From positions 84,816,001-84,880,000 of the forward strand of contig OZ024740.1 in the NCBI GenBank assembly GCA_964016885.1: DNA of 64,000 nucleotides, written 5' to 3'. Shown here piece by piece: positions 5,131-37,637 of this stretch. Positions within the stretch are counted from its first letter, which is position 1. Each line of letters begins with the position of its first letter. The notes under the pieces were generated by a model. It worked only from the letters and a program-made list of their open reading frames with translations. It was not told where the DNA came from and searched no databases. Position numbers and translations under genes: made by a program. Source of the DNA: Eledone cirrhosa. Taxonomy: Eukaryota.

Positions 5131-5941
5131 TGGATCCCAGGTTCAATCGGGGGTAACCACAGTAAGTAAGATACTCAATACATAGCAGAATATAAATAAT
5201 TAACATAGAAATGGCTTCTACAGGACTAGAACTGTTTCATTCAAAGGAAATCACCAGGAAATCCCTTTTTAAACAGTCTAACTGACGGTTTGTTAAGGAA
5301 ATTCCCCTTGTGGTCTTTCAGGGTAAAGTGCGGGGTCTTTACCATTAAGAGTTCAGTTTGGTCATCTAATTTAAGGGACTTTGCAAGCTCTTTTGCAACT
5401 CAATGCCAACTCGTCCACTTTTTTGTAAGTGGTCGTGATTGCATTTTTTGCCAGCTTCTTATAGGTTTGTAAGTCCACCACATATAGGTTTTTAGTTTTA
5501 TCAGAGGGAACATGGAGATTGGGGGAACTTTTCATTTTCCGCATTTCGTCTTTTAGATAGGCCTGGAATGGTGTGTTGGCTCTCCAAAAATGTATGTCTC
5601 TGATCATTTTGAAGAGATCTTCCTCAAATGATTCAAGTAGGCTGTTGGTGGGTGGTGCCTTATTCATTTTGAAGCCGAACTTCTCATCATTGGTAGATGC
5701 TACATCAGGGTGGTGGAAGAAGAAGGCTCTCCATCTAATACACTTAATGAACTCGTCTGTACGTCTGATGAGTGTTTTTAAGTACTGTTTCCTTGGGGGC
5801 ATCGGGATATTCTTCATGGAAATATCCATATCGAGTTTGATCAGCATGGTTTCTTGGTGATGGTTAAAAAGGGGTCAGTAATGTGATGATTTCCTTCGAA
5901 TGAAACAGTTCTAGTCCTGTAGAAGCCATTTCTATATTAAA
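5131..5941 (-). mobile_element. Internally deleted Penelope-like element (N-terminal region to RT motifs 1-2) flanked by inverted pLTR-like repeats
   Basis: ORF 5371-5847 (SMKNIP...IRWRAFFF...FEEDL...PSDKT) continues after a frameshift as ...FTLKDHKGNFLNKPSVRL, typical of PLE RT N-termini. About 55-bp inverted repeats at 5200-5254 and 5886-5940. Confidence 0.8.
5216..5260 (-). ncRNA. Degenerate minimal hammerhead ribozyme in the Penelope pLTR
   Basis: ttc-CTGGTGA-tttcctttgaat-GAAA-CAG-ttctagtc-CTG-TA-gaa. The inverted copy at 5883-5924 has GTGATGA, so the two-copy consensus is CTGATGA. Confidence 0.55.
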
Positions 5942-5950
5942 TATATATAT

Positions 5951-8934
5951 GAAATCCATGGAGGCTATGGGTTTGGTACTAGAAATGAGGAAGGCTCCAG
6001 AATCCTGGAATTCTGTGATGCAAATAACCTAACTATCTGTAACACTAACTTCAAAAAACGTGACAATCACCTCATCACCTATAGATCCGGGGAACACACA
6101 AGCCAGGTAGATTATATCCTTACCTGAAGACGTGACAGAGTGTCTGTTGTAAACACTAAATCCCTCCCCCATGAAGAATGCACCTCCCAACATAGACTGA
6201 TAATTAGCGACCTCATAGTCAGGACGAGACGTACTCGACAGCAGAAGAGGACTATCCTCAGGAGAAAAATATGGAAGCTAAAGGACCCCACAGCCAGAAA
6301 TAAATTTCAAAGCATATTACTTGATGCTTTCGACAGTAAGGAAGAACATTTAGAGTTGGACAATATAGAGGGACAGTGGGAATTTCTGAAAGCAAACCTG
6401 CTGATGGCGACAGACGAAGTCTGTGGCTGGAGCAGGCCTGTAGGCAGGATGAGAGTAACATGGTGTTGGAACAGTAAGGTGGAGGGGTCAATTAAGGCCA
6501 AAAAGCAGGCTTGGAAAGTATGGCGGGATGGGGGAAGTAGAGAAGACTATCAAGTGGCCAGGAGGGAAGCTAGGAGACAAGTGTACTTAGCAAGAAGGGA
6601 AGCTGAGGAAAGAAAGTTCAAGCATGTTCTACAACGCGAGGACCAAAAACGTGAGGTGTTCAGGATTGCTAGGCAATGCGTCAAGGAAAACCGTGATATT
6701 GTCGGGGAGAAGTGTGTACTTAACGATGATGGCATACTTGCCATCGCCGACGCTGATAAGAAGGTAGCTTGGAAGTGTCACTATGAAAGGCTACTAAATG
6801 AGGAGAATAAATGGGAGAATGACAGTCTCCCCCATATCGACCCAATAGAGGGACCAGCAGTGTTAGTCGAGGGGAGTATAATAAGTAAGGCAATCAAGGA
6901 TATGAAGACGGGTAAGGCGGCTGGGCCTTCGGAAATAGTTGCTGAGATGCTGAAGGCATCTGGCACGGTGGGACACACCATGGTCACCCGCATAGTTAAC
7001 CAAGTCGTACAGAATGGGGTTGTTCCGAAGGACTGGCATAGCAGCATCATCGTTAACTGTTATAAGGGTAAAGGAGACGCCCTAGATAGGAGTAACTATA
7101 GAGGCATTAAATTAATCGACCAGGTCATGAAGGTCACGGAAAAAGTAATAGCACAACTAATCAGAGAGAGAATTGACCTAGATGAAATGCAGTTCGGGTT
7201 TGTGTCAGGCAAAAGTACCACAGACGCTCTTTTCATTGTACGACAACTACAGGAGAAGTACCGAGCTAAAGGTAAACCCCTCTACTTAGCCTTTGTCGAC
7301 TTGGAGAAAGCCTTCGACAGAGTCCCCCGCTCCATTATCTGGTGGGCTCTTAGAAAACTAGGCGTTGACGAATGGCTTGTGAGAGCTATACAAGCCATGT
7401 ATAAAGAAACAGTCAGCAAGGTTAGAATTAACAACGAATATAGTGAAGAGTTTAGCGTAAAAGTTGGCGTCCATCAGGGCTCTGTTCTCAGCCCCCTACT
7501 ATTTATTATTGCCCTTCAGGCTATAACAGAGGAGTTCAAGACCGGCTGCCCATGGGAACTCCTATACGCAGACGACCTGACACTCATAGCGGAATCAATG
7601 GCCGAGCTAGAGAAGAAATTCCAAACATGGAAGCACGGCCTAGAATCAAAAGGACTTAAAATTAACCTGGCTAAGACTAAGGTTCTAGTTTGTAGGAAAG
7701 AAAATAAGGCGGCGGTCCCTTCTGGGAAATGGTCGTGCTCGGTGTGTAGGAAAGGCGTAGGTAGAAACTCCATTTTATGTCCTAAATGCAAAGTATGGGT
7801 GCATAAAAGATGTAGTGGGATCACAGGTAAGCTAACTAAGAACATAGATTTTACATGTGGCCGGTGCTCTGGCGCAATAAGTAGCAGCAAGTGCCCACAA
7901 AATACTAGCTCTTTCAATTGCGCAGAGGGTTCTATAGAAATAGTGGACAGCTTCCGTTACCTGGGTGATAAAATCAGCAGTGGGGGAGGGTGCTCTGAAA
8001 GTACAGTAGCTAGAGTCAGAACTGGTTGGAAAAAGTTCAGAGAGCTTATACCACTATTAGCTGCTAAAGGGTTCTCCCTAAAAATGAAAGGCAGGTTGTA
8101 CGATGCCTGCATACGAACAGCAATGTTGCATGGCAGTGAGACCTGGGCATTGTGTGCAGAGGATATACGCAGACTAGAGAGGAACGAAGCTTGCATGCTC
8201 CGCTGGATGTGTAACAGTAATATACGTGAACGGCAAAGCATAAACGAACTAAGGAAAAAATTAGAAATAAGAGGGATCAGATGTTGTTTACTCGAGAGAA
8301 GGCTACGTTGGTATGGACACGTGATGCGCATGAAAGTCAATAGCTGTATAACAAAGTGCAGGGCAATAAAGATAGACGGTAGCCACGGAATAGGCAGACC
8401 TAGAAAAACCTGGGACAAGCTGATAAACTCCGACCTCACACACTTACACCTCTCCAAGACAATGTCACTGGACCGAGACCTTTGGCGGTACTCAGTAACA
8501 GAGAAGACCCGCCTTACCTAAATACATAGTAAAACCTACTACAGCCAGTAGGCATCTCTAACAAAATACCCCCCCCCCCACCCGTCCCACCACCACCACC
8601 ACCACCACCACCCCATCCACACCACCCCGTTCTATGTAAAGTTATGTTGGTGCCACACCATCCAGGCCGAAACAAATGAGATCGTGTAGGTGTCACGACA
8701 AAAAAACACACAGTCCACGCTGTAATGTGACCGTGTAGGCAACACGGTAAAAACCTCCCAGACCCACACTGTAAATGTGGTTGGTGTTAGGAAGGGCATC
8801 CAACTGTAGAAAACCTGCCAGACAGTCCTATGCGAGCAAGACAATCACTCTTGCCTCAAGTGGGACTACCCCCGTCCAAACCCATGCAAGCGTGGAACAC
8901 GGACGTTAAACGTTGATGATGATGATGATGATGT
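5951..8934 (+). mobile_element. 5'-truncated young RTE-clade LINE (APE endonuclease C-terminal part, RT, 3' UTR, (GAT)n tail)
   Basis: Frame from 5951 reads EIHGGYGFGTRNEEG...QVDYILT*RR (single TGA at 6125-6127) and continues into ORF 6140-8521 with YRGIKL, QFGF, FVDLEKAFD, GVHQGSVLSP, LYADD, FRYLG and RRLRWYGHVMR. Ends in gatgatgat and is flanked by (TA)n. Confidence 0.95.
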
Positions 8935-9314
8935 ATATATATATATATATACATACATACATATATATCATCATCATCATCATTTCATTTTACGTCCGCT
9001 TTTTCCCTACTTGCAAGGGTGGGATGGGAACTGATTCTGGCTTGATTTCTACAGCTGGATGCCCTTCCTAAGACCAACCTCATTTACAGTGAGTGCTGAG
9101 TGCTTTTTTGCCATGGCACCTCCGCGACCACTTTGCAGTGGAATGATATGGACCCCAGTCCCTATCATCTCATTTCTACAGCTGAGTAAACTGGAGTAAA
9201 ATGTAAAATAAAGTGTCTTGCTCAAGGAAATAACACATCACCCGGTCTGACAATTGAACTCACAACCTTTCGATTGCAAGGCCAATACTCTAACCACTAA
9301 GCCATGTGCCTCCA

Positions 9315-9890
<576 letters not shown>

Positions 9891-10628
9891 AAAAGGTGAA
9901 GTTGGAAATAGCACAGAAAATACATTTTAGGGTCTGTTTTTCTTTTTTTTCCTTTCTTTGATTCGTAAAAGTTACATTATTGAAAAGATGACATTATTGA
10001 AAAAATGAGAGGGACAATTCTTTTAAAAAAGAGTTTTATAATGTATATAATGTATATAAAGTATTACCGGTTTTGATGTATTATTAATATTCATCTTATC
10101 AAATGTTGAGTATTACAATTAAAAAGAATTAATAGGACTTAAAAACTAAACAACTAGACAACTACCAAAACTGCTGCTACTATCATGACTACACACCTCT
10201 CTCTATATATACACAAGAACTCATTCTCCAGTTCACTTCTGAGCAAGGAAGATGGGAAAAAAACTTTCTCCAACACTTAATTATAAATCTTTAATTTTTA
10301 GTTTTTAAGTCCTGTTAATTCTTTTTAATTGTAATACTCAACATTTGATAAGATGAATTTTAATAATACATCAAAACTGGTAATACTTTATATACTTTAT
10401 ATACATTATAAAACTCTTTTTTAAAAGAATTGTCCCTCTCATTTTTTCAATAATGTCATCTTTTCAATAATATCACTTTGACGAATCAAAGAAAGGTAAA
10501 AAAAAGAAAAACAGACCCTAAAATATATTTTCCGTGCTATTTCCAACTTCACCTTTTCTCTATATCCACTGCTTTGTATAGAACCTTACTTCCCTTTTCT
10601 AGTATATATATATATATATAATATTATT

Positions 10629-10806
10629 ATTGGCAGTATCGGTAGAGGGTCGGACGCCATGCTTTCTAGCATAGTTACGTCCCTTTACGATCTGAGTTCA
10701 AATCCCGCCGAGGTTGACTTTGCCTTTCATCCTTACGGGGTCGATAAAATAAAGTACCAGTAATGCACTGGGTAATTACTGGCCTTGTGCCTAAAGTAGA
10801 AACAAT
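10629..10806 (+). mobile_element. Same tRNA-derived SINE family
   Basis: Near-identical to the reverse complement of 1369-1555. Confidence 0.85.
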
Positions 10807-11789
10807 TATTAAAGTGAAAAAAAAGTTGGTTGATCAAATAATCTACCGACTTTAGTCATAAACAAATGTAAAGCACTCTAGGACTTGTGTTCCTTAAAGT
10901 ATTATCAATAAGGTATCAACCAGAGTGCCAATATTATAAAGGTGGTTTTAAAAGTACATCCTCTATTTATTGTATAGTCTTGTTATACATATTTCGAAGA
11001 CGTCTTTGAAATACATATAACAAGATTATACAAAAAATAGAAGCTGTCCATTTAAAACCATCCCACTTCTTTATAATATACTAGCAGAATGGCTCGGCGT
11101 TACTCGGGAATTGCTCTAGGGTTCTTATATATTTGATATATATTTATCCTTATTGAGCCTCGTGAAATAAATACGTTTATTTATATTTTGTTATTGTGTA
11201 TGCAAAAATATCTGTACACGAATATATAATTATATATATATCTATATATCTAAAACAGAGAATGTCTGTCTGTTGTCAGCTCACTAAAACTTGAGAACCA
11301 CCCAACCGATTGTTTTCAAACTTTACACATGTAATACTTATGGTCCTGTGAGTGTTTTGAGAAAAAATATTTCAAATTTTCAATGCCCTAGGGACCGCAT
11401 TAGGTGATTTAGCGATCTCTCTCTATAATTCTTAGTCTTTCTTTTTAGATAGATACATAGATATAACGTTGTGCCCTTATAATTGTTTCTACTTTAGGCA
11501 CAAGGCCAGCAATTACCCAGTGCATTACTGGTACTTTATTTTATCGACCCTGTAAGGATGAAAAGCAAAGTCAACCCTTATAATATATGTCTGGCTGTCT
11601 GCATTACGTCATTATGACACGATCAGTGTGTGTGTGTGTGTGTGTACATATATGTATCGTAATGCAGACAGCAAGACATATAGCTTTCCTTCCCCTCTTC
11701 CAGCGTCTCTCTCTCTCTCTCCCGCTATCCCCCTCTTTTAGTCTGTCTGTTTCTTTCACTCTCACTCTTTCTCTTTATAACTCACTCAC

Positions 11790-11966
11790 ATTGGCAGTAT
11801 CGGTAGAGGGTCGGACGCCATGCTTTCCAGCATAGTTACATCCCTTTACGATCTGAGTTCAAATCCCGCCGAGGTTGACTTTGCCTTTCGTCCTTATGGG
11901 GTCGATAAAATAAAGTACCAGTAATGTACTGGGTAATTGCTGGCCTGTGCCTAAAGTAGAAACAAT
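11790..11966 (+). mobile_element. Same tRNA-derived SINE family
   Basis: Near-identical to 10629-10806. Confidence 0.85.
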
Positions 11967-12756
11967 TAATACTAAAGGGTTAAGGTATTGTTCTCAAAAT
12001 AAATAATATTAAATCTATGAGATTTTTATCTTATGTGAGATAAAGTCTTTACCATGAAAATAATATAGTATATATAGAGTAATGTAAATGCTAAAGGGTT
12101 AATTCCATCAGACCATGTGAGAGAGTTTATAATCACTCACACACACATACACACTCACGCATGCAAACGCACACAAACTCACACACACACGCGTGCACGT
12201 ACACACACACACAATAGTTATTCCACTGTCACATATATTTGACGCATGCAACTCTCAAAAGACGGCGTCTGTCACTCTCTCTCTCTCTCCCGCTATCCCC
12301 CTCTTTTAGTCTGTCTGTTTCTTTCACTCTCACTCTTTCTCTCTGTAACTCGTTCACATTTCTCCCCTCTATCGAAAAACGCTGTGACGAATGGGGAGAA
12401 GGAGGAAGAGGAGTAGAGACCCACTTCTTCACTTCTCCTCTCCGTTTCTTTCTCTCCCCTCTCACTCCCTCATTATGTACAGACATTGGCCACTTCACTA
12501 ATTCGATCCCTAGGTCAGAATAATTTGAAATTTTTTTTTGTTCAAAACACTTCCGGGGCCATACGGGTTACATGTGTAAAGTTTGAAAAAAAACGGTTTG
12601 GTACTTCTCGAGTTTTCGGGAAACAGACAGACATCCTCTGTTTTATATAAATGAGATTTTTTTAATGAAAAAAACGAGATGTCTTACACGAGTGAAAGTA
12701 TAAGGAAAAGAAATTGAAAATACAACTGGAGTCTTTTTAAGAATATTTATTTGTTT

Positions 12757-12793
12757 CCTTTACCGGTTTCACAGTTCTTATGTTTTTCAAAAG
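12757..12793 (-). ncRNA. Degenerate minimal hammerhead ribozyme remnant
   Basis: ctt-TTGAAAA-aca-taagaac-tgt-GAAAC-CG-GTA-aag, with palindromic ACCGGT helix III and a following AATAAA. The CTGANGA box carries two mismatches. Confidence 0.45.
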
Positions 12794-13359
12794 TAGAATT
12801 GAGATGGAGGGTTTGTGGATTTTCTCACATCTAAGAAAAACCATAAACCCTCCATCTCAATTCTACTTTTGAGCATAAGAACTGTGAAAGGAAACAAGTA
12901 AATATTCTTAAAAAGACTCCAGTTGCATTTTCGATTTCTTTTCCTTAAATATCTATATATATAAAACTGATGTTGTCTGTGTGTGTCCTCATTTTTGCAA
13001 AGTCTATACAAAGCCACATTTCTACTCCGATTGACTTCAAATTTGCATTTATATATTCCTTGCAGTCTAAAGATACTAACTGCTGCTTTTATTTTTCAAT
13101 TTTCTGTTGTTAAAGGGGTGTCAGGCGTCGGTTATCGATCGCCGTCGAGCCCTTATAATATCTGTCTGTATCTCTGGCTGTCTGCATAACGACATTCTGA
13201 CGAACACGTCATTGCTGACGTATTATCTTCGCTACATTTACACACACACACACACTTATATATACATATATATATATACACATATACAAAGATATACACA
13301 TATATAGATATACACATATACACATATATAAATATACACATAAAAATATATGTATATAT

Positions 13360-13413
<54 letters not shown>

Positions 13414-13503
13414 ATATATATATATAGATACATACATATATATATATGCATACATACACACACACGTATATATATATATATGTATCTGTATATATATATA
13501 TAT

Positions 13504-14894
13504 TTGACAGAATCCCCCACTCCATTATCTGGTGGGCTCTTAGAAAACTAGGTGTAGATGAATGGCTTGTGAGAGCTATACAAGCTATGTATAATGAAAC
13601 AGTCAGTAAGGTTAGAATTAACAATGAATATTGTGAAGAATTTAGTGTAAAAGTTGGTGTTCACCAAGGCTCTGTCCTTAGCCCCCTCTTATTTATTGTT
13701 GCCCTTCAGGCTATAACAGAAGAGTTCAGGACCGGCTGCCCATGGGAGCTCCTATACGTAGACGATCTAACGGTCATAGCTCAATTGATGGCTGAACTAG
13801 AAAAGAAGTTCCAAACATGGAAGCATGACCTAGAATCAAAAGGCCTTAAAGTTAACTTGTCTAAGACTAAGGTCCTGGTTTGTGGAAAGGAAGATGAGGC
13901 ACAGGTACCCTCAGGGAAATGGCCTTGCTCAGTGTGTAGGAGGGGAGTAGGCAGAAATTCAATTTTATGTCCCAAATGCAAAGTATGGGTGCATAAAGGA
14001 TGTAGTGGGATCACAGGTAAACTATCTAAGAACGTAGATTTATATGTGGCCGATGCTCAGGTGCAATAGGTAGCAAGTGTCCACAGGATACTAGCCCCTT
14101 CTATTTCCCAGATGGTTCTATAGAAATGGTGGACACTTTCTGTTGCCTGGGTGACGAAATTAGCAGTGGTGGAGGGTGTTCTGAAAGTGCAGTAGCCAGA
14201 GTCAGAACGGGATGGAAAAAGTTCAGAGAGCTTATACCGCTGTTGGCCACAAAAGGTTTCCCTCTAAAAATGAAGGGCAGATTGTATGATACTTGTATAT
14301 GAACAGCAATGCTACATGGCAGTGAGACATGGGCATTGTGTGCAGAGGATCTGCATAGACTGGAAAGGAACGAAGCATGCATGCTCCGTTGGATGTGTAA
14401 TAGTAATATGCGTGAGCGGCAAAGCATAGATGAACTAAGTGAGAAATTGGGAATAAGAGGGATCAGATGCTGTTTACTCGAGAGAAGACTATGTTGGTAT
14501 GGCCATGTGATGCGGATGAAAGATGACAGCTGTATAAAGAAGTGCAGGGCGATCAAAATTGCTGGTAGTTACGGAGTAGGTAGACCCAGAAAAACCTGCG
14601 ACGATCTGATAAATTCCGACCTTGCACACTTGCACCTCTCTAAGACAATGTCGCTGGACCGAGATCTTTGGCGCTACGCAGTAATACAGAAGACCCGCCT
14701 TGCCTATGTACAAGGCGAAACCTACAGTCGGTAGGCACCTCTTAACCAAATATACACCCCAATCCACTACCCCTACCCTATCCTCCCACTCCCACCAACA
14801 CCACCCTCTCTCTATAAAGTTGGTACCACAACATCCAGTCCAAATAAATGAGATGATCGAGATCGAGATCGTGTAGGTGTCACGAGAAAAAAAC
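13504..14894 (+). mobile_element. Second 5'-truncated, frameshifted copy of the same RTE LINE family
   Basis: ORFs 13446-14069 and 14309-14734 are closely similar to the 6140-8521 protein ([17 protein letters not shown]..., LHGSETWAL...). Contains a frameshift and a stop; starts in (TA)n. Confidence 0.92.
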
Positions 14895-17800
14895 ACATCA
14901 TTCTTAAACTCTGGGGCTGGAAATCATTTGGTTATTTTAAATAGAATATTAGTCTAATGACTCCATTTATACCATAAACTTGGTCTTGTCTTTGCATGAA
15001 ATTGTTCTTCTCGTTCCACATAACGACTTATTATCCTCGCTTTTTTTCTGTTCATTAATAGGGAACGTCTTCACGAACCAAAATATCGTCTTCCTGTTTT
15101 TGTTGTAACGTTTCTCGAAATATTTACTTCTGCGTTCAAAGATTGAATTTTTTTGTTTCAGAAGATCCCGTTAATGTTGAAAGCAGCGATTCTTTGCTTA
15201 AACTTTAATCTGTTCTTATAACAAATATATATATATATATATATAGGGAGAGAGAGAGAGATGATATATATATATATATAAACGAGGATAATGATGATGA
15301 TATATATATATATATATATATATCATCATCATCATCTTCGTTTAACGTCCACTTTCCATGCTAGCATGGGTTAGCATGGGTTAGACGGGAGTTCTCCCAC
15401 TTGAGGCAAGGTTGGTCGGGTGACCGTGTCTCACTCATATAGGACTATCTGGCAGGTTTTCTACGGCTGGATGCCCTTCCTAACACCAACCACATATATA
15501 TATACAGATACATTGTAGGTTGCTTTAAGCTGTCTTTTATTATTCAAAAAACTTCTTGCCAATAAACATTAACCCTTTGTGCGCCATTCATCTAACTGTA
15601 GACCAACAAATACCAAAAAACGGAGCGTTGAGAAGAATGATGGCGAATGAATGTTCGAGATAAGCAGTTTCCTCCCAAGCAGTTTCCTCCCAAGCTGTTA
15701 GTTCACGCGGGATTCTCTGCTACACCTTTTCATAATAATACCGAACAACGTACTGCTGGTCACTCCTTCCTCCAAAAGCCGTACAAAGCATCTCTCTCTC
15801 TCTCACTCTATATATATATATTTGTTATAAGAACAGATTAAAGTTTAAGCAAAGAATCGCTGCTTTCAACATTAACGGGATCTTCTGAAACTAAAAAATT
15901 CAATCTTTGAACGCAGAAGTAAATATTTCGAGAAACATTGCAACCGAAGGAAAACAGGAAGACGATATTTTGGTTCGTGAAGACGTTCCCTGGTAATGAA
16001 CGGAAAAAAAGCAAGGATAATACGTCGTTATGTGGACCGAGAAGAACAATTTCATGCAAAGACAAGACCAAGTTTATGGTATAAATGGAGTCGTTAGACT
16101 AATATTCTATTTAAAATAACCGAATGATTTCCAGCCCCGGAGTTTAAGAATGATGTAAATAAAATTGAAAATGAAAATGACAGAGGTTATTAAAATAGTA
16201 AAAGTAAATAGTGAAGATTTAGGCCAGTACATACGTATGTGCCGACGAACATACACATACATATACATACGCACACACAAATACATACACACATACAAAC
16301 ACACACGCATACATGCACGCACGCACGCACGCACGCACGTGCGTGTGTGTGTGTGTGTAAGCCTTATGCATTTCTACAGTATTTTCACCAAACTTAAGAT
16401 ATAGGTTACTTATGTACTTTGGATGGTCATGGGCACTTTCAGATATTGATTATAGGGCCTCCCGGCAGATAACCCCCTTCAACCGCTTCCTTGGAGTCGA
16501 CTGAAGCACTGCAGTGCAATGCAACAAAACGTCATAACTTCTGTAGTTCGCAACCGATTTTCACAAAACTTGACACATGGGCTACGTTTGTTCTGCAGAT
16601 GAATGTGAATTGGCACATATTGAGTAGGGGACCCCTGGGGGCAGGAACCCCCTTTGGGAAAAAGCCGATGATTTTGTAAAAGTATAGTTTTCGAAGCAGC
16701 ACTGAAGTATTGACATAAATGGTATACATAACTGCTATTTAATACGCGAGCAATGCCGGGTACCTCTGCTAATATATATATATATGTGTGTGTGTGTGCA
16801 GGATATCTGAGGTTAAAAGGCCAAGGAAAACAATGCTCAATGTATTGCAAGAGAGCTTGTTCCGTATAACAAACATTTGATACACTTAACATATGTACAA
16901 CGTTAGGTTTCAGTGTCCAGTTATGGCCACTACTGTATAGTAGAGGAACTATTTCCACACTGGCCTCTTGGGTGCCAGGACAAAATTTAAGGTTATGCAT
17001 ACATGTTAAGTATATAAAATTTTAATTATACTATATATGTATATATATATAAAATTCTTAAGAAACAGGTAGCTGTGTGGTTACTTGATAAAGTGTATTT
17101 AGAAATAAGAGGAAAGCACAAATAGGGGACATTCCCATCATCAGTTGACTGCTGGAGAAAGCCTCGGACTGAAGTCCAGTAGCTGGTTTAGACTTCTCCC
17201 TCTCTCTCTCCCGGTTACTCATACACATACATGTGCTTTTGATGTTTCCCTCTTTTTCGGTATGTTCTCTGCATTTTTTTCTTTTTTTCTTTCTTTTTTC
17301 CCTTCTGTTATATTTTTTCTCTCTCTGCTTTTTTCTCCAATAACTTCCAATAGTTATTGACGCACTGGAGCTAGATACTTGTCTTTAATGCATTGAAATG
17401 TCCGTGATCTCCAGCAGACAACTGATGATGGGAATGTTCCCCCGTTTTTGATTTCCTCTTATTTCTAAATACACACAAACACACACACATATATATGTAT
17501 ATGTGTGTGTAAAAAGTAAATGGAAACAACAAAACAAATAACATGGTACAATGAAGAAATATATTAGTTTAACATTTGATACAGTAAAAAAAAGAGTCTT
17601 TATATACATATATATATATGCAAAAGGCAAACAGAAATAACAAACAAATGACACAGTACAATGAAGAAATATATTAGTTTTATGCTTGATATTGTAGCAA
17701 AAGAGTCTTACCATTCCGGATGCTAGTCATTCATCAGAAAATAGAATGAGAAATTAAAGAAGAAATAGAAAGATTGACAAGATGAGCAATGGCAGAAACA

Positions 17801-18722: not shown

Positions 18723-18744
18723 AGGTATTAATAAAATGGGTGTA

Positions 18745-18776
<32 letters not shown>

Positions 18777-22785: not shown

Positions 22786-22908
22786 TTGATTTACACTTTT
22801 TAATCCCTTTGATCATTTCTATGTGAGTAATGAGAAATTCTGTTCCTGGGAACAACAAGGTAGCCATTACAGCAGACTTTGAATGTGTGTGAATCACAGC
22901 ACCAGCAC
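22786..22908 (-). CDS. APIP: APIP coding exon 5: (G)[40 protein letters not shown]
   Basis: Zn-binding HTH(S) motif of the class II aldolase fold. ttgcag acceptor, gtaagt donor, 123 nt, phase 1 to 1. Confidence 0.97.
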
Positions 22909-23131
22909 CTGCAACAAAACAACACAATATAAAGAGAGACTTTTATTGAGATTTTAAAAACAAAAGGGAAAATATTTATACAAAGCAATAAGGAAATAAA
23001 GAATAGAAGAAAAAGAAAAGAAATAAAAAGAAAGAAGAATTAAACAACAAAAGAAAGGGAATGCATACATACTCACATGACTAACAGAAGAAGGTATAGA
23101 AATACTCAAGAAATCAGACAGTATATCTCAC

Positions 23132-23249
23132 CTCTCATTGTATATGCATTCATAAACAAGGGAGTGCATTGTGAAATCTTTAACTTTTTGGCAGGTGGTG
23201 GTTCAGCAGTTGTCTCCTCTTTCATGTTCACAACAAATAGATCTTCGGG
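23132..23249 (-). CDS. APIP: APIP coding exon 4: [39 protein letters not shown]
   Basis: Contains the conserved SQCTPLF (catalytic Cys) motif. ttctag acceptor, gtgaga donor, 118 nt, phase 0 to 1. Confidence 0.96.
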
Positions 23250-26070: not shown

Positions 26071-26082
26071 CCTCTGTATATA

Positions 26083-26125
<43 letters not shown>

Positions 26126-26554: not shown

Positions 26555-26603
26555 CTTGATTTTTTCTTTCTGAACACCTGAAGGAGCAACATATATTTCA
26601 TCC
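26555..26603 (-). CDS. APIP: APIP coding exon 3: DEIYVAPSGVQKEKIK
   Basis: Matches APIP DEIYIAPSGVQKERI. tttcag acceptor, gttggc donor, 49 nt, phase 2 to 0. Confidence 0.95.
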
Positions 26604-27825
26604 CTGAAACAGGTAAAAATATACATATATCAATAAGCTGTTGTAATATGTTTGAAATTACAAAATATATGGCAGCATTGTGGCTGTACTGTTTCTGAGA
26701 ATACTTAACCAACCACTTTACAGAATGACTTTCTCGATAATTTTTCTACTTCTGACTCCTGTTAAGCTTGTAAATTAAAAATCTTCAAGTCATAGAAAAA
26801 CAAATATATGGGAAAAGGGATGGTTTCTGAATAAACAAACTCTTTAATAATCAATTATTATTAGTACTAATCAAGTACTGGTGGTTAGTATAATAAACTA
26901 ACCTCTCCTCACAAATTTGTGACTTTGTGTGCTTATGTTAGAAGTGATTATAATAAGGTAATATGTCAATTACTGGAAGTCAATTTTTTCGTTTAATCAA
27001 TGCTGTATTAACTTCTAGCTAAGTTTGGAACAAGGGTTTCAGATTTTGATCATATGTGATGCACATGTATAATGATCACTGGGTGGTGCCAGGAAATCCC
27101 AGTGGAAGGAAGCCACAGTAGAGATTGACCAAGGAAGACTTGGGCAGAGGTGGTGAGAGCTGATTTCAAATCACACAAATCACAGGGAATCACAGAGGAG
27201 ATGATGAAGGAATGCAGCAAGTGGAGAGGTGTTATGCTGAAAATGACTTGCCCAACCAATGCAAAGGTGGAAAACAGACGTAAAAACAACAACAACGATG
27301 ATGATGATCATCATCATCAGCATCATTTAACTCTTAACATCTTGTAATGAGCTAGGAGATATCTAAAAATAGGTTTGTTAACTTAAATGTTTAGAGTATC
27401 TTTCCTAGTGAACAGACCATTGTGAAAATTTACAGTAAACTAAAATTAAAACGTATTTGTGAGTTTTAAATCGAATAATAATAATATTCAAATTGTTTGC
27501 AAGCAAACAGCCACATTATGCTATGTTTTTTAGATTATCATCACCTCCTTTTGTTTTAGCAGTCACAGAGAGAAACAACCGACAATAATATAGTTTCTGG
27601 GTTATTGCCCTTTGTCAAGATTGTGTATTTCTCTTCTGTGACTCACTACAATTATTGACAATATATAATGTTCATTAAATATACATCAGCTGATTAGCCT
27701 AATTTGTATACTGAGGGATTTTACAGCTGGCTTTGCCGAAAATTAAAAACAAAATTAGAATTTAGTTTTTCATTCTAACATAGCGTATACGTAAATATAT
27801 TTGTGTTTCATATCAAATAACAATA

Positions 27826-28043
27826 ATTGTTTCTACTGTAGGCACAGGGCCAGTAATTTGAGAGGGAAGGGAAAGTCAATTAAATTGACACCAGTGCATT
27901 ACTGGTGTTTTATTTTATCGACCTTGTAAAGATGAAAGGAAAAGTTAACCTCAGTGGGATTTGAACTCAAACGTAAAGGGTGATAACTCTATGCTGCAAA
28001 GCAGGGTGTCTGACACTCTACCAATACTGCCAATCCACTGCCA
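27826..28043 (-). mobile_element. Same SINE family, inserted in the centre of an older fold-back repeat
   Basis: Core sequence recognisable. The flanks are inverted copies of each other. Confidence 0.75.
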
Positions 28044-28512
28044 TCCTTTTGTTCTAGTTTGCAAATGAATTGAATATTATTTGATATAAAACTCATGAAC
28101 ACATTTATGTATCCACTATGTTAGAGTGAAAAACTAAATTCTAATTTTGTTTTTAAAATAAAAACATTGATTTGTAATGTGATGCAATCGTAATGCTGTT
28201 TTGTATTTTTCAAGAATATCTTGTTAATGTGGTTTCATGCGGTACAGGATTTTAAGAGTTAAACAACTCTGTTACCAAAAAGTGACTATCACAGATATAT
28301 CTGAAATCATTTTCTACTAATAACATTTATGTTGTTCTGACGACAAAGGAATGTAGATGGATCCCTTACAAAAGAACGACATCTTAAAATCATGTCTGAG
28401 AATACACCAGAGTTTAGTAGCTAGCATGATAAAGAGGATCAGCACTAATAGTCCACTCTAAAGTTGCCTAGACTTTGGAGCAGGGAAAACTTAGTGAGGT
28501 AAGTGAAATAAA

Positions 28513-28743
28513 TACAGTGTGAGTCATAAGTAACCGGGCAGTCAATGCATTTTTATTACAAGGTTCACAGATAATTTTTTTCAACATCCACTTATTTACG
28601 TGTGATCAGCCATTGTTATATGTTTTTTAGTTGCTTTTGTTTGATATATTTATAATTTCGTAAGATATGACTAGAATTTTAGTAAATATTATCACTTGGA
28701 ATATAAATGTTGGACTGCTGGATTACCTATGACTTACCTTGTA
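28513..28743. mobile_element. Tc1/mariner-type MITE
   Basis: TA-CAGTGTGAGTCATAAGTAACCGGGCAGTC at the left end; the reverse complement of the right end reads TA-CAAGGTAAGTCATAGGTAATCCAGCAGTC. Confidence 0.65.
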
Positions 28744-28883
28744 TTTGGTTTGAATTGCTGTAGGTTATTGGTTGAGGGGGATAGGACATGAACAATGAAA
28801 ATGTCCTGGGAAGGATAAAGATTTTAAATTAAAATTTAGATAATATTTATACCTTTCATACACACTTTCAGAGTAATACTTAC

Positions 28884-28978
28884 TGGTGTTTTATGCTGAT
28901 TCCTCCACCAGTTCCTGTACACCAATCAAGATGATAGAATTGACGGCACAATTCTGGTATCAAGTTGCGTGGATGTTC
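28884..28978 (-). CDS. APIP: APIP coding exon 2: [31 protein letters not shown](Q)
   Basis: Matches the APIP/MtnB N-terminal motif ([24 protein letters not shown]). aag acceptor, gtaagt donor, 95 nt, phase 0 to 2. Confidence 0.95.
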
Positions 28979-30012
28979 CTTTAGAAAAACATCAGTAGAA
29001 ATATCAAAAGTAAATTAATATGAAAACAATAAATCTAATAATAATACATTATTTAAAATATTTTCTTTCATTAATAAGTAAAAAATGAATAAAAGATATT
29101 ATATTAAAAACATTGGAGAGGTGGGAAAAGTTCAGCATATTAAATTTAGAGCTTAATTTCAATACAAGTTAGGTCAAATGTGTGCCATATATATCATTAA
29201 TGTAAAAGATATGAACACTACATCTTCTATTCTCTAAGAATTGAATAAGACTAAACCCAATTCTAGCCTCCACTGGCAGATGTCTTTGATTTTTTTAAGT
29301 ACTACAGAATATAACTATAGTGTTTTAGTTAACAGAAAATTTATTGACAGATATAAATATCTTGTTATTATATACAATATCTTCAGAGAGAGAAAAAATA
29401 AAGGAATTTGCCAGAATAGTTTAAATTCTGTCTTGGGATTTCCTCAGCAACTGAGTGCCATTTTTAACATGGAGACTGCTTGTAAAGCCAGAATTGCTAA
29501 GTGCTAAAGTAAATGGGATACATTAATTTGCAAATATAAGGCATTCTTGGCAATTATTATGATTAATAAATTGCCAGTGTGTTAACCATGTTTTGTTTCA
29601 ATGTAATACTGTACTCAATTTAACTTATGCTCCTGGATAATCAAGTACTAGGGTGATACAATGTAGAGAGGCCACTTTAACCCTTTGATAATCATATCTT
29701 TAAAGAAACATACAATTCTAATTTCCAGTTGATGTTGAAAATATTCAAGAATTTGAAGAGACTTTGCAAAATATCTAACTTTTTGATTCATTGATATATC
29801 AAACCAATGTTTTGTTCACAATTTAATAAAAGTTTTTCACTTAAAATTTTAATAGAATGTTTTCAATGAACATTTTTAAATAAATGATTTTGTATCATAG
29901 AACCAGGGTCAGTTTCAAACTGTTTTGTGACAAACAGCTTCTAGTATTTCTGGCACAATAATATACAACTCAATGTTATGAAGTCAATCAACATGGAAAC
30001 ACACATATTCAA

Positions 30013-30053
<41 letters not shown>

Positions 30054-30488
30054 CATATACATAAACTAGACAGAGTCATAGATATATATATATATATGTT
30101 TTTGGCAACCATTCACGGTGTGGCTCAATGACGAATTAATTAATTAAATAATTAACAATCAGAGCAATATATAAGAAAGTTAGTCCATAGAATCATTTGA
30201 TAAAATATATACAGTATTTCTTCTCCCAATCAGCATAATTAACCACATAAAAAATCAATTAAACGAGGCTATAAGTTTAAAATGTACTTATGAAGAATAC
30301 TGGGTAAATCTTCTGTGGTTGTGGATCGCGGATAAAATAGGTTTCATTTATTTATCTATTGTTTCTTCATAGGCACATTTTAAACTTATAGCCTCATTTA
30401 ATTGATTTTTTGGGGTGGTTGATTATGCTGATTGGGAGAAGAAATACTGTATATATTTTATCAAATGATTCTATGGACTAACTTTCTT

Positions 30489-30519
<31 letters not shown>

Positions 30520-30557
30520 ATATTAACAAATGGAAACTATATTTATAAAACCTTATT

Positions 30558-30623
30558 TATTTTATTATACATATTTCAAGGGCCACCAAGGCAAATTATG
30601 GTGCGCTTTCATCAGATAAAATA
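30558..30623 (-). ncRNA. Hammerhead ribozyme-like motif (slightly degenerate)
   Basis: Minus strand reads tattttat-CTGATGA-aag.gcacca...tggtgg..ctt-GAAA-TAT-GTA-taataaaata. Core boxes are intact; helices I and III are imperfect. Confidence 0.55.
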
Positions 30624-30850
30624 CAATACAGATTTGTTTTATAAATAAATATTGACATACTCTGAAAAAAGACAACCTTAATTTGCCTTGGTGGCCCTTG
30701 AAATATGTATAATAAAATAAATATGGTTTTATAAATATAGTTTCCATTTGTTAATATATTGTATATTTACTCCATTAATCTGTTGAGTGCTTTATATCAG
30801 TTATAAAAATGTTTAAGCTTGTTGAATCCCAACAAATTAAATATAACCTC

Positions 30851-30889
<39 letters not shown>

Positions 30890-33039
30890 CGTCCGAAACC
30901 TTAAGACCCTCTTCCTGCTATTTCAAGTGTTAAACTAATATATTCCTTCCATATACTGTACAGTTTGTGTTGTTATTTCTGTTTACCTTTTACATATATA
31001 TATATATATATATATAATCTTGCTATTTTCTAGTCTTGTTATACTTTTATCAGTGAAAGAACAACCATTTTCTGTCTATGACAAGACAATTTACATGGGT
31101 TGGATGAGTTGCCTCTAACACTGTCCTTCACCCTTTATGATCTTTTGTCATCTCCTTCAGAACCCTGATCTGATATTAGCTTTTACTAGATCTACCCATG
31201 TCTTCCTCTACGACAGGTTCCCAGGTTCTATCTATTGGGATTGCTTTACACTTCATTACTAAACTGCCATCCTCCATATAAATACCACAGTTCAGTCTAC
31301 TTTTTGGCACACTACATCAGATTCTTCTTATATTCAACATCATAAAACCTCTCCTTCACTTGGTGAGAGAATTCCTTTGTTGCCAGCAGAGGTAATCATT
31401 ACTTCAACTTTTTCCACATCATTCTTACACTGGTTACTTCCATCAACTGCTTCTAGGGAGCCTTCAGAATATTTCCTGGATGCTATTACAAATAACATCA
31501 ATTACATACAAAGTTTTCCTACATATACATATGTATGTAAATATCGTCATCATTTTTATATATGCTTTTCCATACTAGCATGGATCGGATGAGACATTTT
31601 ACAACAGTATCTTATGACTGGATGCCCTTCTTGATTAGGTTAGTCACCGTTTTTTTGCATGTTCAACAGTTGACCCATCAAACATAAACTAATATCACTG
31701 ACTGTGATGTCAAATGTTAAGCAAAGACATGAAAGGAAACATGCACACAAACATACACACATGCATGCATACATACATACATACATACATACATACATAC
31801 ATACATACATACATACATACATACATACATACATACATACAAATATGTAAAACATTCCAAAAATTCTGCATCTAATAACTGCATATACACTTGTACAGAT
31901 ACAAAACATATGCACATGCACACATACAACTCAAAACATACACATCCACACATACAATAACATCCATACCTGCACACACATCTACCTACTTGATGTGTAA
32001 ATTCCAATGAGAGAGTCTTCTATCTATCTTAGAAACCGGCTCTCTCTCTCAAGTGGCAAACATTTGTGAAATTATAAAATTCAAAATACCATATAATGCT
32101 AAATATTGATGTTTAAATACAATCTGAAATTAAAGATTACCCAAGCTGTGAACAACTTTACATTTGATTCTGATAAAACTTTGTCAAAACTCTTACAGGA
32201 GATCAATGTCTATTTTTAGAATTAAATACATCATTGAATAGGAAAAAGTCGTCATGGCTAAATGTATATCTCCTGTAACCAAATCACTGTATCAAAGATT
32301 TGTATGAAGCATATAGAATCTGACCCCCAAAAGTTTGTTTATGCAAAAGGTGAAAAATCTGTGAAACTTCAAAATCTCAGAATTAGGCTTTTCCCAAAAA
32401 CATTTAAATGAACAAAAATAATGTTTCATTGGGAAAGCAAACACAAAATAATATTGATGATAATAATAATGATGATGATGATCAAATTAACCATATCAAC
32501 ACTAAAAATATCATGGATTTTTAATACAAAGTTGTTACAAAGAAACTGTATCTACTCTCATAGAAGATATACCATCATATAAAAAGTTGGTGTACTCTAT
32601 GAACGTAGTTGGCTTCTCTCTGATATTTCACATCATGATGATACAGATGTATAAAATCAGATGGACAAATCTATTGTGTTTAGCCTCAGTTCCATTTACA
32701 TATTTGTCAATGGAGTGAGATTATTATGTCTTCTTTCATAGCTTTTCAGTGATTGCATTATCAAAGATCCTTAAAAATATCATCTGCTCTGGTTTCATGA
32801 GATATTCTCTCTATGTTCAAACCAGTTGTATCATACTGACGTTAAAGTATTGTCCTCAAAATAAATCATATAAAAATTTTGTAGATAAAGCCTTTACTGT
32901 GAAAATACAATAGTAAATATAGAGTAATGTGACTGCTAAAGGGTTAAAATAGCTGCAGGTATATAGTGAGGTGTGCTTCTGGTTCCATTGTTTTCAAATT
33001 TTACATCAAATTCGTTTTTGTCAATAATGTTATAGAGCT

Positions 33040-33390
33040 ACATTTGAAAGTGTGTGTGTGTATGTGTGTGTGTGTGTGTGTATGTGTGTATAGCTAGATC
33101 TGAATGTGTATGAGTAGCTACATCTGAATGTGTATGTGTAACTACAGTTGAATGTGTGCGTAACATCGGCATATGCATGTGTGTGTGTAACCACATTTGA
33201 ATGTACAGTGTATGTATGTGTAACTGCATTTGAGTGTGTTTGTGTAACTACACCTGAAATGTGTGTGTGTGATGTTATATTGGAATGTGTCTGCGTGTAT
33301 CAAGCTACATCAGAATGTGTGTGTGTGTGTGTGTGAAGCTACATCTGAAAGTGCATGTGTTTGTTTGTGTGAGTGTGTGTGTGTAACTCC
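33040..33390. repeat. (TG)n tract punctuated by an actacatctgaa-like unit
   Basis: Recurring ctacatctgaatgtgt motif; also at 33740-33845. Confidence 0.75.
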
Positions 33391-35961
33391 CTTTGGATGT
33401 ATGTATCGAGATCTTTGGCGTTTGCAGTAATACTGAAGACCCACATTCACATGCACACGGACAGAAGCATACATCTGGTATGCACCTCTTAACCACTATC
33501 CTCTCTCCCCATTCCATATACCTCCCACACCCTAACACCCCACCTACATCTGATCACAACACTCTTACTCTGTAAAGTTGTCGTGTTGGTATCATGACAA
33601 AAAGCATCCAGCCATAGAAACCAAACAAGAAACAGTTCTGTATAAACAAGACAGTCACCTGATCCAACTTGCCTCAAATGAGACAACCCATCTAACCCAT
33701 GCTAGTGTGGAAAATAGACATTAAATGATGATGATGATGATGTATGTGTAACTATATCAGAGTCTGTGTGTGTGTGTAATTAAATCTGAATGTATATATG
33801 TGTGTTACTACACCTGAATGTGTGTGTAGTTAGATCTGAAAGTGAGTTTGTCTCAAACCCATAGGCTCATCAGGCTCAAGCTTATACATGTTTGACATGG
33901 TGTTGTCTGAGAGTACAAAACTCCGCCTCCCCACCAACACCAGATAAGACACCAGTCCATTACAGGGTTAACCACTAGTTACTGATACTGCTGCTGCTGG
34001 TACTCATTTTTCAGCTGAGTAGGCTGGAATAAGAACACAAAGTGCCACTTAACCCAGGAATTGAACCCACAGCCTTATGATTATTAGCCCAACATGCTAA
34101 CCTCTAGGCCACATGACTCCACTTGCATGCATATGTGCAATGTGGATGTAACATAACCAAATGGTTAAGAAGTTTGCTTCACAACCATTAGGTGTTGGCT
34201 TTCATCTCACTACATGGCATCTTAGGCCAGGTGTCATCTACCATAGCTTTGGGTCAATCCATGCCTTGTGAGTGAAACAGGGTAGACAGAAACTGTTTGG
34301 AAGCCAATCAGATGGACTGTACCTGTAATTCAACTGGCCAACCTTCTCACACACTGTATCATGCTGAATCTCCCTGAGAATTACGTTATGGGTACCTGTT
34401 TCTATGGAATGCTCTGCCACATACACATTAATTCCACAAGCAAGCTGTTCAATTGATCGAACAGTGAGAACACTCATTGCTGAAACTGACAGAGGTCTTT
34501 TCCATATGGGTAACATGAAAAAAAACATCTGTGCTATATGTGTACTAGTGGAATAGTACAAATACTACTGTGCTACATGTTCAATATTTCACACAATTTG
34601 AATAGATCTTTCCTGTTTGAACCATCTTTATTAAGGACTGAATCTATTTTACACAGAATTAATTAGACCTATTTTGCACTGAACTAAGATTACACATGAT
34701 TTTAAAAAATTAGGATTTACCTTTGTTTTCAACATCCTTGATTTCTTTCAACATTCTTTTTTCTTAATGAAAGTATTTTTAATTTGGTTTCAATTTTCTG
34801 AATCAAACCTTTCAGTAGTAATTCCTCTTTATCATTGTTCATTTATTCTTTTGGAGTGATTGTTTGCTAAAGACCTTGCATTGTTGTATGTATAATACTT
34901 ATGTCTGAGAAAACTAGCCAGCTTGAATTAAACATCATGGATGCAGTCCAAATTATTTAAGAAAATACAATACAGACAAGATGGAGTAAACAAAATAAGA
35001 ACAATCCAGTGATTTATCAGTTGTCTCTAACTCCTTTCTTCCTTCCTTCATTGAAGCCTCAACTCTTGGTGGAGTTATAGAGGCAATGTAATGACATACA
35101 GCATGTCTTTAACATTTTAAACCTAATGGAGCTCATCCTACTACAGGTCTTCCCAGAGCTAATTTCTAACAGAGAGAAGATGAAAGAGTGAGGGAGGAAA
35201 AAGAGAGAGAGGAAAAAATGAGACAGTGAGAAAGAACCATCATCCATACTGGACTGGTACTTTATTTATTGACAATGTTGGTGCCACAACAAAAATCATC
35301 CAGTCTACCCTGTAAAAATGGTAGTTGCTGATGCCACAAAAAATACTCCCAGTACAAGCGGTTAAGAGATTAGCACTAGGAAGGGCATCCAGCGAAAGAC
35401 ACCTAAGCCCAAAACAGAATGTATGAGCAAGACATGGTCACCTGTCAATCCATCAAACCCATGCAAGTATGAAAAATACACATTAAATGATGATGATGAT
35501 GATAATGAAAGGAATGATAGGTAAAGCTGATCTAAACAGTAGAGTACAGAGAGCCAGAACAATTACTACAAAGCTATCTATCCAATACTCTAATGACATT
35601 GCTAATTCACCACCTTTACCTCTAACTGTAGAAAGGATAACTTGCTGCATGAAGGAAATTATTTAAAGATTATTAAGAAATATTTCTGCTTAACATCAGT
35701 CATGCTACAAAATGCTAACCCAGCCTGGATGTTTGTAACAGAGTGGAACTCACTAATGGCACACACATGCCAGGGGATGATATTAACTGAATGACCGAGT
35801 AAATCTACCATCCAAGGACAAGAGCAATCCCTCCAATGAACCTTCACACATTTTTTTCTTTTTGCCTACCACATTTCATTTGCTAGGCTTTGATCATCCT
35901 CAAAATTACATTAGAAATCACTTTCCCAGGGTACAGTAGTGGGATTGACCCTGACTCTTGC

Positions 35962-36181
35962 TTAATCTTTTAGCATTTAAACCAGTCGTATCCAGCCAGA
36001 ATTCTCTCACCTCTTTCAGTTCAAATTGGCCATAACGGGCAACTCATACCAACATTAAGGTATTGTTCTCAAAATAAATAATATCAAAATCTCATAGATT
36101 CGATATATATTATGTGAGGTAAAGCCTTTACTGCAAAAATACAATAGTAAATATAAAGTAATGCAAATGCTAGAGGGTTAA
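35962..36181. mobile_element. piggyBac-type MITE copy
   Basis: TTAA...TTTAGCATTT / AAATGCTAGAGGG-TTAA, with internal sequence shared with 2494-2709. Confidence 0.75.
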
Positions 36182-36881
36182 GTTAGAAACAACATAGTTT
36201 CAAGGTTAACTTCTTAACCACACAGCCATACTTAATGTTATGTAAAGTACCATATATTTGGGCTAGTCATTATCTTAAGTTTAAAATGGTTAACAGTAGT
36301 GATCTGCTATTGCTGAGTATTGAGAATTCCTATTGGCAGTCATAAAATTGTTATGACATCTCTAAAATGTCTAAGGAAACAAAAGACTAAAAAAGAAAAA
36401 ATGGGAAGAATAGAGCAGTAATAGTATATGAGGCATGCATGTACATAAATAAATATATACATATATAAGGCATATATATATTATAGTTTACAGGATATGA
36501 ACAAGCACATATAAATATAATGTACACATGTGCACACACACACACATGTATATATATATATCATCATCACCGTTTTACGTCCGTTCTTCCATGCTAGCAT
36601 GGGTTAGATATATATATAAAGTGATTATATATATATATATATATAAAGTGATTCAGTGAATTACTGGTGGTGGTACCAAAACAAGCACTCTATGCATAAG
36701 CAGAGTATATATATTAGAAAAAATGAGGAAGTTTCATTTACCTGTATAACATTTTTATTGTGTTTCGCAGAGCATTGGCTCAAGGTCAACCCATAGGAGT
36801 TATTGACTCAAATCCATTATCGATCTACTCATCAGATTGATGATGTTTTTTTTTTGTTTTTTGTTTTCATTTGTCACATCA

Positions 36882-36971
36882 CCAGTCTGATGAGCAGATC
36901 GATAATGGAGTCAGGTCAATAACTCCTACGGGTGATCTTGAGCCAATCCTCTGCGAAACGCACGTAACAGG
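36882..36971 (+). ncRNA. Type I hammerhead ribozyme (Penelope pLTR-type)
   Basis: CTGATGA (36887-36893), helix II GCAGA/TCTGC closing a long loop, GAAA (36955-36958), minimal helix III AC-gcac-GT, cleavage triplet GTA (36964-36966), helix I ccagt/acagg with one mismatch. AATAAA at 36981. Confidence 0.75.
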
Positions 36972-37637
36972 TTGATACACAATAAAAATCTTATACAGGT
37001 AAAATTCCGTTATAACGAATACCATTATAACGAATTTTTCAGTATAACGAATTTTTTTTTCAATCCCCAGCCACACGCTCGATGTGTTAGGTCGATCTCG
37101 TTATAAAGAATTTTTCGTTACAACAAATTTTTTTATACTCCATGAATTTTGTTATAACAGATGTAAACGAAACTTCCTTGTTTTTTCTAATATATATATA
37201 TATATATATGACCGTATGGAAGCGAGATGCAGACCGTATGGAAGCGAGATGCAGACCCCCTGGCTTGTCTGGGAGGTCAGTAGCCCTGCTTCAGTATTGA
37301 CTTGGTCTATGTAAACCCATCTAAACCTTGCTATCAGAGAAAGTGGACATTAAATGATGATGATGACGATGATGGTGATTATGTATGTATATGCAACGAA
37401 AATATCGGTGGTAAAAAAAAAAGAAGAGTGTTTTATCTAGTGAAGAGAGCTAATTTATTATGATCCATACACGGAACATGTATTGTATTACCATAGGCAT
37501 GGCAGCAACTGCAACACTTTGGCCTAATTCATCAGGCACAGAATATCTCAATGAGATCTTGTTTTGAAATTGCATGTTGAAAAGGGCCATAATCCCCAAA
37601 ATATGTTGCTCCATTTTCTAAGGGAGATGACTCTTGT

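Follow-up and report, generated by a model that had tools for sequence, protein, structure and literature searches.

What gave rise to the small inverted repeats carrying hammerhead ribozyme cores that are found within the APIP introns of Eledone cirrhosa? We addressed this question in a 64,000-nt stretch of contig OZ024740.1 (assembly GCA_964016885.1, positions 84,816,001 to 84,880,000 of the forward strand; hereafter the window), which sits within a 3.0-Gb genome. A sequence-only reading had described at least four such units here, proposing that they are remnants of Penelope-like elements (PLEs) with inverted pseudo-long terminal repeats (pLTRs), or else non-autonomous fold-back retroelements. 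Our analysis upholds the first proposal, in that a parent bearing an open reading frame (ORF) was found for the family of every unit, and the four units represent the 3′ pLTR ends of four different PLEs. In our assessment the units are probably short insertions of four autonomous PLE families, lacking the ORF or retaining a fragment of it, in which two pLTR ends stand head to head, with dual priming likely at (TA)n and predicted run-off at the 5′ end of the element RNA.

All four inverted repeats are present as described, and mapping of the APIP exons places every one of them within an intron. Those of units 1 and 3 have arms of 67 nt (5190-5256/5884-5950) and 109 nt (30508-30616/30661-30769), respectively, each pair at 93% identity; those of units 2 and 4 span 12701-12947 and 36706-37198. 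The limits first given to the units were too narrow because a tail present on one side had been overlooked, and we corrected them to 5131-5950, 12649-12947, 30508-30857 and 36654-37196. TA runs adjoin the outer ends, as had been noted, and an AATAAA indeed follows the ribozyme in three units (2, 3 and 4) and is lacking in unit 1.

Within unit 1, the tail-bearing arm (5131-5263, minus strand) holds a family-1 hammerhead with C3 at 5257 and a core mutated to CTGGTGA, plus the tail, and the inverted tail-less arm (5884-5950, plus strand) starts within the core (GTGATGA). Between them (5271-5860, minus strand) lie the N-terminal ~197 codons of an apparently Hydra-type PLE ORF with one frameshift, so that the Penelope coding sequence claimed for this unit is borne out; the fragment matches the intact parent ORF of locus L110 at 78% and 63% identity (tblastn, E 7e-67 and 4e-15). 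Unit 2 consists of a tail-bearing arm (12649-12832, minus strand) from an apparently Neptune-type family, whose hammerhead has the U3-A8 core variant and an ACCGGT helix III, and a tail-less arm (12834-12947, plus strand) with small deletions in the ribozyme. The tail-less arm of unit 3 (30508-30681, minus strand, sense to the APIP pre-mRNA) carries an intact type I hammerhead with C3 at 30615, and its tail-bearing arm (30661-30857, plus strand, tail at ~30770-30855) is truncated within stem II. Finally, the tail-bearing arm of unit 4 (36654-36845, minus strand) has the 3′ half of its ribozyme deleted, and the tail-less arm (36867-37196, plus strand, antisense to APIP) has an intact core with C3 at 36887 and a ~60-nt loop II. 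Nested in unit 4 at ~37003-37162, following a TA, is an unrelated insertion with internal repeats, presumably resembling a miniature inverted-repeat transposable element (MITE), which is absent from the other family-4 copies compared.

We traced the parents by following the longer copies of each family upstream. For family 1, five of the six loci retrieved contain an intact 713-aa ORF (98.4-99.6% identical) with YRDD and YIG motifs, identified by motif and tblastn as a reverse transcriptase (RT) with a C-terminal GIY-YIG endonuclease. In families 2, 3 and 4 the RT and endonuclease frames are broken; they lie 0.7-1.4 kb upstream of the ribozyme, from which a non-coding 3′ region separates them. 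At loci L110 and L111 hammerheads flank the ORF on both sides, and L110 additionally has an inverted copy. The parents show the features of endonuclease-bearing (EN+) PLEs, namely an RT/GIY-YIG ORF, pLTRs with a type I hammerhead and an optional tail at one end.

Motif lists in PMC8557442 characterize the Hydra clade by RWK-like and DKT motifs, a CxCX5C linker, CxxC and CxH, no CX2-5CxxC finger and (TA)n targets, and the Neptune clade by a CX2-5CxxC linker finger and CCHH with two cysteines between GIY and YIG. By these lists, the Hydra clade is the match for families 1, 3 and 4, and the Neptune clade for family 2. The family-1 ORF contains RWR38, DKT116, CNCLNKEAC566, CDLC666 and CMH694, and families 3 and 4, represented by C-terminal fragments only, share the CxCX5C linker, CxxC and CxH around the C-terminus. 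In family 2, loci L206, L220 and L303 show a CGRSNCGTC linker (CX4CxxC) and IYVIKCKGCNEDYIG with histidines downstream; a CxxC within GIY-YIG, as in Neptune, is shared by family 2 and a fifth family described below. Family-1 units, at ~4.8-5 kb, exceed the <3 kb reported for Hydra (PMC8557442) because their 3′ untranslated region is long and microsatellite-rich.

The abundance suspected from the sequence is real: exact ribozyme 21-mers number 32,521 for family 1 and 6,624 for family 3, with none for reversed controls. We examined the anatomy of the insertions in four tail-anchored samples of 30 loci, which are top BLAST hits and not random, and in position-ordered samples of 40 loci each for families 1 and 3. 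Duplicate loci L033, L137 and L198 and second-strand repeats of family-4 loci were dropped from the arm counts; the position-ordered family-1 numbers are raw, with eight rows representing one duplicated locus and three loci listed twice. The layout is common to all families: the two arms meet at their 5′ ends and face out into (TA)n. Their 3′ ends fall at two fixed positions per family, a near end at +65, +91, +107 and +146 from core C3 (families 1-4, respectively) and a far end, which adds the tail, at about +125-135, +159, +195 and +211. Exactly one tail is present in 60 of the 66 hairpins obtained with tail-free queries (17/18, 28/30 and 15/18 by sample; two hairpins have both tails and four none), and in 18 of 19 hairpins from the position-ordered samples (12/12 for family 1 and 6/7 for family 3). 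The tail is found on either side, and the longer arm can be either one. We also observed different PLE families inserted into each other's TA flanks, at L087, L170, L175, L182 and L351.

Insertions of this kind might be propagated as units. In that case either the complete hairpin or one short arm containing an internal promoter would be transcribed, and the parent enzyme would copy it again as a non-autonomous fold-back retroelement. Consistent with such copying, units 2 and 3 have at least 40 near-full-length matches and unit 4 has many, with stereotyped length; junctions are shared by L331 and L334 and by L050, L055 and L075; arms beginning at the start site could retain an internal promoter, as in Drosophila virilis (PMC2377424); and non-autonomous PLE derivatives exist (PMC8557442; bioRxiv 10.64898/2026.07.22.740005). 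We nevertheless consider re-copying unlikely as the general origin of the units. Junctions differ between loci with a few exceptions, the tail is on either side, and two-arm insertions without overlap are common. The shared family-3 junction falls at a 3-nt microhomology and is present in two subfamilies, and the sole block of eight identical junctions (L353, L358, L359, L360, L365, L372, L385 and L388; 0.35-6.7 Mb) is one family-1 insertion repeated with a shared flank of at least 1.0-1.4 kb at 97-98% identity, either a duplicated block or the cargo of a larger repeat.

Arm comparisons point the same way. Identity between loci is the same for like and unlike arms (0.931/0.932, 0.953/0.946 and 0.830/0.829; family 1, from a sample chosen by tail arm, gives 0.913/0.892), which argues that no master hairpin was copied. 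Rare letters are common to an arm and its own partner at 0.26-0.50, compared with 0.04-0.21 for other loci, and both arms thus derive from one source element. A fixed internal structure inherited across loci, as MITE-like or fold-back elements would have, was not found. With ORF-bearing parents for all families, variable junctions and no inherited arm asymmetry, the fold-back class proposed by the sequence-only reading does not stand, although the few loci sharing a junction may reflect some re-copying.

Rare letters shared by the arms of one locus would also be expected from snap-back self-priming, proposed by Arkhipova et al. 2013 (PMC3846280), in which one cDNA or antisense template folds at a palindrome and copies itself. 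Many junctions hold short palindromes, and the head-to-head polarity is likewise as self-priming would give (PMC3846280). A copied arm must, however, nest within the first arm, yet tail-less arms often extend further upstream than the tail arm. Moreover, whereas 7 of the 40 position-ordered family-3 loci are hairpins, in another 13 a tail-less arm is preceded by a tail fragment in inverted orientation, the two overlapping little if at all, and snap-back cannot explain these loci because it cannot yield non-overlapping arms. (In family 1, an inverted tail fragment in this position is clear in only 1 of 11 tail-less loci checked.) Self-priming may account for a subset of insertions, such as those with palindromic junctions, and is improbable as the explanation for the whole.

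Separate priming of the two arms is the reading we prefer, and it receives further support from a fixed upstream limit of the arms. Arm 5′ ends cluster at about −3 to −12, −43, −88 and −31 to −37 from core C3 in families 1-4, respectively. Among 182 tail-anchored ends, 67 lie within 11 nt inside the limit and 96 deeper inside, with 4 in the 50 nt beyond it and 15 further out; the corresponding counts in the position-ordered samples are 20, 13, 3 and 19 of 55 rows for family 1, and 16, 18, 3 and 11 of 48 rows for family 3. Head-to-head pairs were counted by hand among the first 100 listed exact matches per family: 20 of 22 family-1 pairs within 500 bp are separated by 44-80 nt, where the limit allows 81, and in family 3, where it allows 193, the spacing is no more than 187 nt for 10 of 11 pairs. 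In three of the four families the limit is an initiator-like CA ~30 nt below a TATA-like box. In long copies, the combination of a YCA and, 28-33 nt above it, a TATA-like word is found at one of 352 positions in family 1 and one of 306 in family 4, each time at the limit, and gives four hits in 462 positions in family 2, two of them at the limit. From these motifs and end clusters we infer that the limit is probably the transcription start of the element RNA.

Alternatively, the arms could be 3′-end copies truncated at random at their 5′ ends, with a splice acceptor, sampling bias or a structure in the RNA giving rise to the limit. The CAG that coincides with the limit of families 1 and 2 could be such an acceptor, the intron of D. 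virilis Penelope ends at helix I (PMC4209133), and long arms exist. Against this, the copies do not share an upstream exon joined to that point, and an AG is lacking at the limit of families 3 and 4. In families 2-4, 31-88 nt separate the limit from the core below it, and the position-ordered samples still show the gap beyond the limit, where families 1 and 3 each have 3 ends in the next 50 nt. Random truncation is, in our judgement, very unlikely.

Several points nonetheless weigh against a transcription start at the limit and against separate priming more generally. Family 3 has CCACT at the limit and no TATA-like word at the proper distance, the TATA-like run of the fifth family is only ~20 nt above its end cluster, D. 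virilis Penelope has an internal promoter that lacks a TATA box (PMC2377424), and the CAG of families 1 and 2 falls at the limit. The limits were fixed after the data had been seen, and the position-ordered samples are richer in long arms (19/55 rows in family 1, a figure inflated because some rows are double-listed, and 11/48 in family 3). Some junctions are short palindromes, as under self-priming. As for the parents, clades were assigned by motif and not by tree, and Pfam returned no families for the 713-aa ORF, nor for the unit-1 ORF fragment.

Three further origins of the ends were considered and dropped. A SINE-like (short interspersed element) origin of the fixed 5′ end in units 2-4 was abandoned when longer copies led to ORFs; poly(A) sites do not fit the tail-less ends, there being no A tails and an AATAAA spacing that varies between families; and ribozyme cleavage fits neither end, as the 3′ ends lie beyond the cleavage site by at least 20-60 nt and the core separates that site from the upstream limit.

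In the sequence of events that we propose, the PLE enzyme would nick both strands of a (TA)n target, so that one target strand would prime synthesis from the far site and its partner from the near site. The cDNAs would extend toward the 5′ end of the RNA, most stopping at or before that end, and the two cDNA ends would then be joined, probably by end-joining or microhomology. A hairpin would result where both arms extend past the ribozyme, and non-overlapping arms where the tail arm stops early; long arms (~30%) would come from read-through RNA. Unit 1 adds a variation, since its tail arm ends at the limit (−3) and is preceded by ORF codons 1-197, placing the ORF fragment upstream of the ribozyme, the reverse of the order in the parents, where the ORF lies downstream. 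We suggest that this arm extended as far as the end of the RNA and from there jumped to the ORF, which is simpler than a >4-kb deletion happening to end at the limit. The counts that discriminate between these models are one tail per insertion, independent arm lengths and the fixed upstream limit.

A related process is known from L1 twin priming, in which two primers, one on each strand of the target, leave the 5′ part inverted; here, in contrast, both start sites are fixed and the arms often overlap. Comparable, too, is the purified Anolis Poseidon PAc protein, which in vitro nicks and extends both target strands and starts at two adjacent internal sites near the ORF start, defining the tail, on similarly AT-rich targets (Frangieh et al. 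2024, PMC11167929). The PAc start sites are inside the ORF, whereas those of family 1 lie upstream of the ATG, and the accessible portion of that paper does not present run-off at the RNA 5′ end as a source of short hairpins. We found no paper tying short PLE hairpins to transcription-start run-off or twin priming in a search that covered neither subscription journals nor Repbase and Dfam. More broadly, we give about equal weight for and against the proposal that the short copies are a fossil record of Penelope insertion, preserving paired priming at two fixed sites near the mRNA 5′ end, cDNAs that run off where transcription starts, in the manner of retroviral strong-stop DNA, and occasional jumps. 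If true, jumps from the RNA end would also explain the origin of pLTR tandems; the origin of tandem and inverted PLE ends is called undefined in PMC8557442.

The ribozymes themselves correspond only in part to the CTGANGA...GAAA layout first ascribed to all four units. A strict type I descriptor with stems gave two hits in the window, at 30615 on the minus strand (unit 3) and 36887 on the plus strand (unit 4), compared with 2 hits in total in ten dinucleotide-shuffled windows; the layout fails in unit 1, whose cores are mutated, and in unit 2, whose core reads TTGAAAA across its whole family. With one mismatch allowed, the window had 7 hits and the shuffles 3, 0, 5 and 4, so that the anticipated excess over shuffled sequence is not clear. 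Nor does the GTA cleavage triplet hold, as the triplet of unit 3 that is compatible with stem I is ATA. A type I core with three helices is found in units 3 and 4 (by descriptor) and in the family-1 parents, and not in the unit-1 copies of the window. The family-1 parent ribozyme is intact, with 97% of cells paired across 8 rows, and its stem I shows 2 compensatory pairs among these 8 related rows, amounting to two events.

Database and folding results were largely negative. In Rfam, no hammerhead family was among 107 window matches at E up to 5, four better-preserved copies gave no match at gathering score, and units 2 and 4 drew weak microRNA matches. Folding 8 monomers by minimum energy gave no advantage over shuffles (z −0.42 to +1.5). 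According to PMC4209133, minimal PLE hammerheads cleave weakly, and not as monomers, and the U3-A8 core variant is described for Schistosoma PLEs. On sequence criteria the hammerheads appear to be real, of type I and minimal, and they are passengers, mostly decaying.

Much of this layout has precedents. Canonical EN+ PLE insertions (PMC8557442 Fig. 2; PMC3846280) likewise have a head-to-head inverted 5′-truncated copy, a tail at one end, (TA)n targets and a pLTR hammerhead, and their derivatives include internal losses flanked by inverted pLTRs, as here. The insertions described here differ in that most copies measure just 100-350 nt, with a fixed end-point upstream, their tails are 45-90 nt long against 30-40 nt, and copy numbers reach thousands to tens of thousands, unlike in the canonical descriptions. 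The minimal hammerheads of metazoan PLEs (Cervera and de la Pena 2014, PMC4209133) share type I cores, a palindromic helix III and the U3-A8 variant, and opposite-strand hammerhead pairs 100-700 bp apart were read there as truncated PLEs. In comparison with these hammerheads, family 1 has T-T at the base of stem II in place of the conserved G10.1-C11.1, together with a 4-bp helix III, and family 4 has the ~60-nt loop II. Animal non-LTR retrozymes (bioRxiv 10.64898/2026.07.22.740005) are similarly PLE-derived and ORF-less with a type I hammerhead, but they are head-to-tail tandems, whereas the arms here are head-to-head; the two hammerheads of an opposite-strand pair cannot both be ribozymes in one RNA. 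The hairpins are one outcome of the PLE insertion reaction, with a layout already published, and they constitute no new class; since this class of sequence is known, the claim of a new fold-back retroelement fails. What these copies add is the pattern of fixed end-points, and the families may already be listed in the supplements of PMC8557442 and PMC4209133.

In genome annotation, hairpins of this type will resemble MITEs or microRNA precursors, and they belong under their PLE parents. Family 1, of Hydra type by its motifs, is a candidate for biochemistry because it combines intact, near-identical ORFs with more than 30,000 ribozyme copies. If the fossil-record proposal is true, the hairpins would be a large self-contained source of intronic double-stranded RNA. 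By analogy with lizard Penelope repeats (PMC5625713), hairpins in introns could serve as substrates for RNA editing.

The window also contains a fifth fold-back at 9887-10605, missed by the first reading, with a U3-A8 hammerhead in both arms and a one-sided tail. It has at least 40 genome matches, its tail-less ends adjoin (CT)n, and a parent fragment with an apparently Neptune-type endonuclease piece lies upstream in L343. Nearby, a short palindrome at 10943-11060 has arms similar to the family-3 hammerhead over its 3′ half, with AATAAA following, and may represent a sixth family whose truncation falls within stem II. When 10 other inverted repeats in the window were scanned with a loose motif, one showed a hammerhead-like layout, and there was no such motif at 1363-2173, 2886-3778, 9398-9719, 10712-11576, 14895-16156, 17093-17474, 27743-28156 and 30167-30494; some of the motif-less repeats may be other two-armed retroelement insertions. 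Another PLE remnant lies at 38124-38321 (minus strand), where tblastn aligned the endonuclease region of the family-1 ORF weakly (E 6e-4). Beside unit 1, a 797-aa open RT frame of long interspersed nuclear element (LINE) type occupies 6128-8521 on the plus strand, with a broken relative at 13428-14734; we take both to be RTE-like.

The host gene, APIP, is on the minus strand, with six coding exons located by motif and splice sites and exon 1 added from a contig; the positions are ~56656+, 28883-28978 (exon 2), 26555-26603, 23130-23249, 22790-22908, 4960-5031 and 2290-2395. Exon 2 is covered exactly by a 1051-nt contig of run X1, which in its behaviour resembles a spliced-transcript assembly, and 29 extra letters at the loose end of this contig match 56656-56684, where the 3′ end of exon 1 reads ATG GAC GAA and is followed by a GT donor. 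Because the end of exon 1 maps there, units 3 and 4 lie within intron 1; units 1 and 2 lie in the intron between the exons near 22790 and 5030. Intron 1 also holds, ~1.1 kb below exon 1 and on the same strand as APIP, an intact 583-aa ORF (53768-55516, minus strand) with HTH_psq, DDE_1 and PHD matches, which may be a domesticated pogo-type transposase sharing the APIP promoter.

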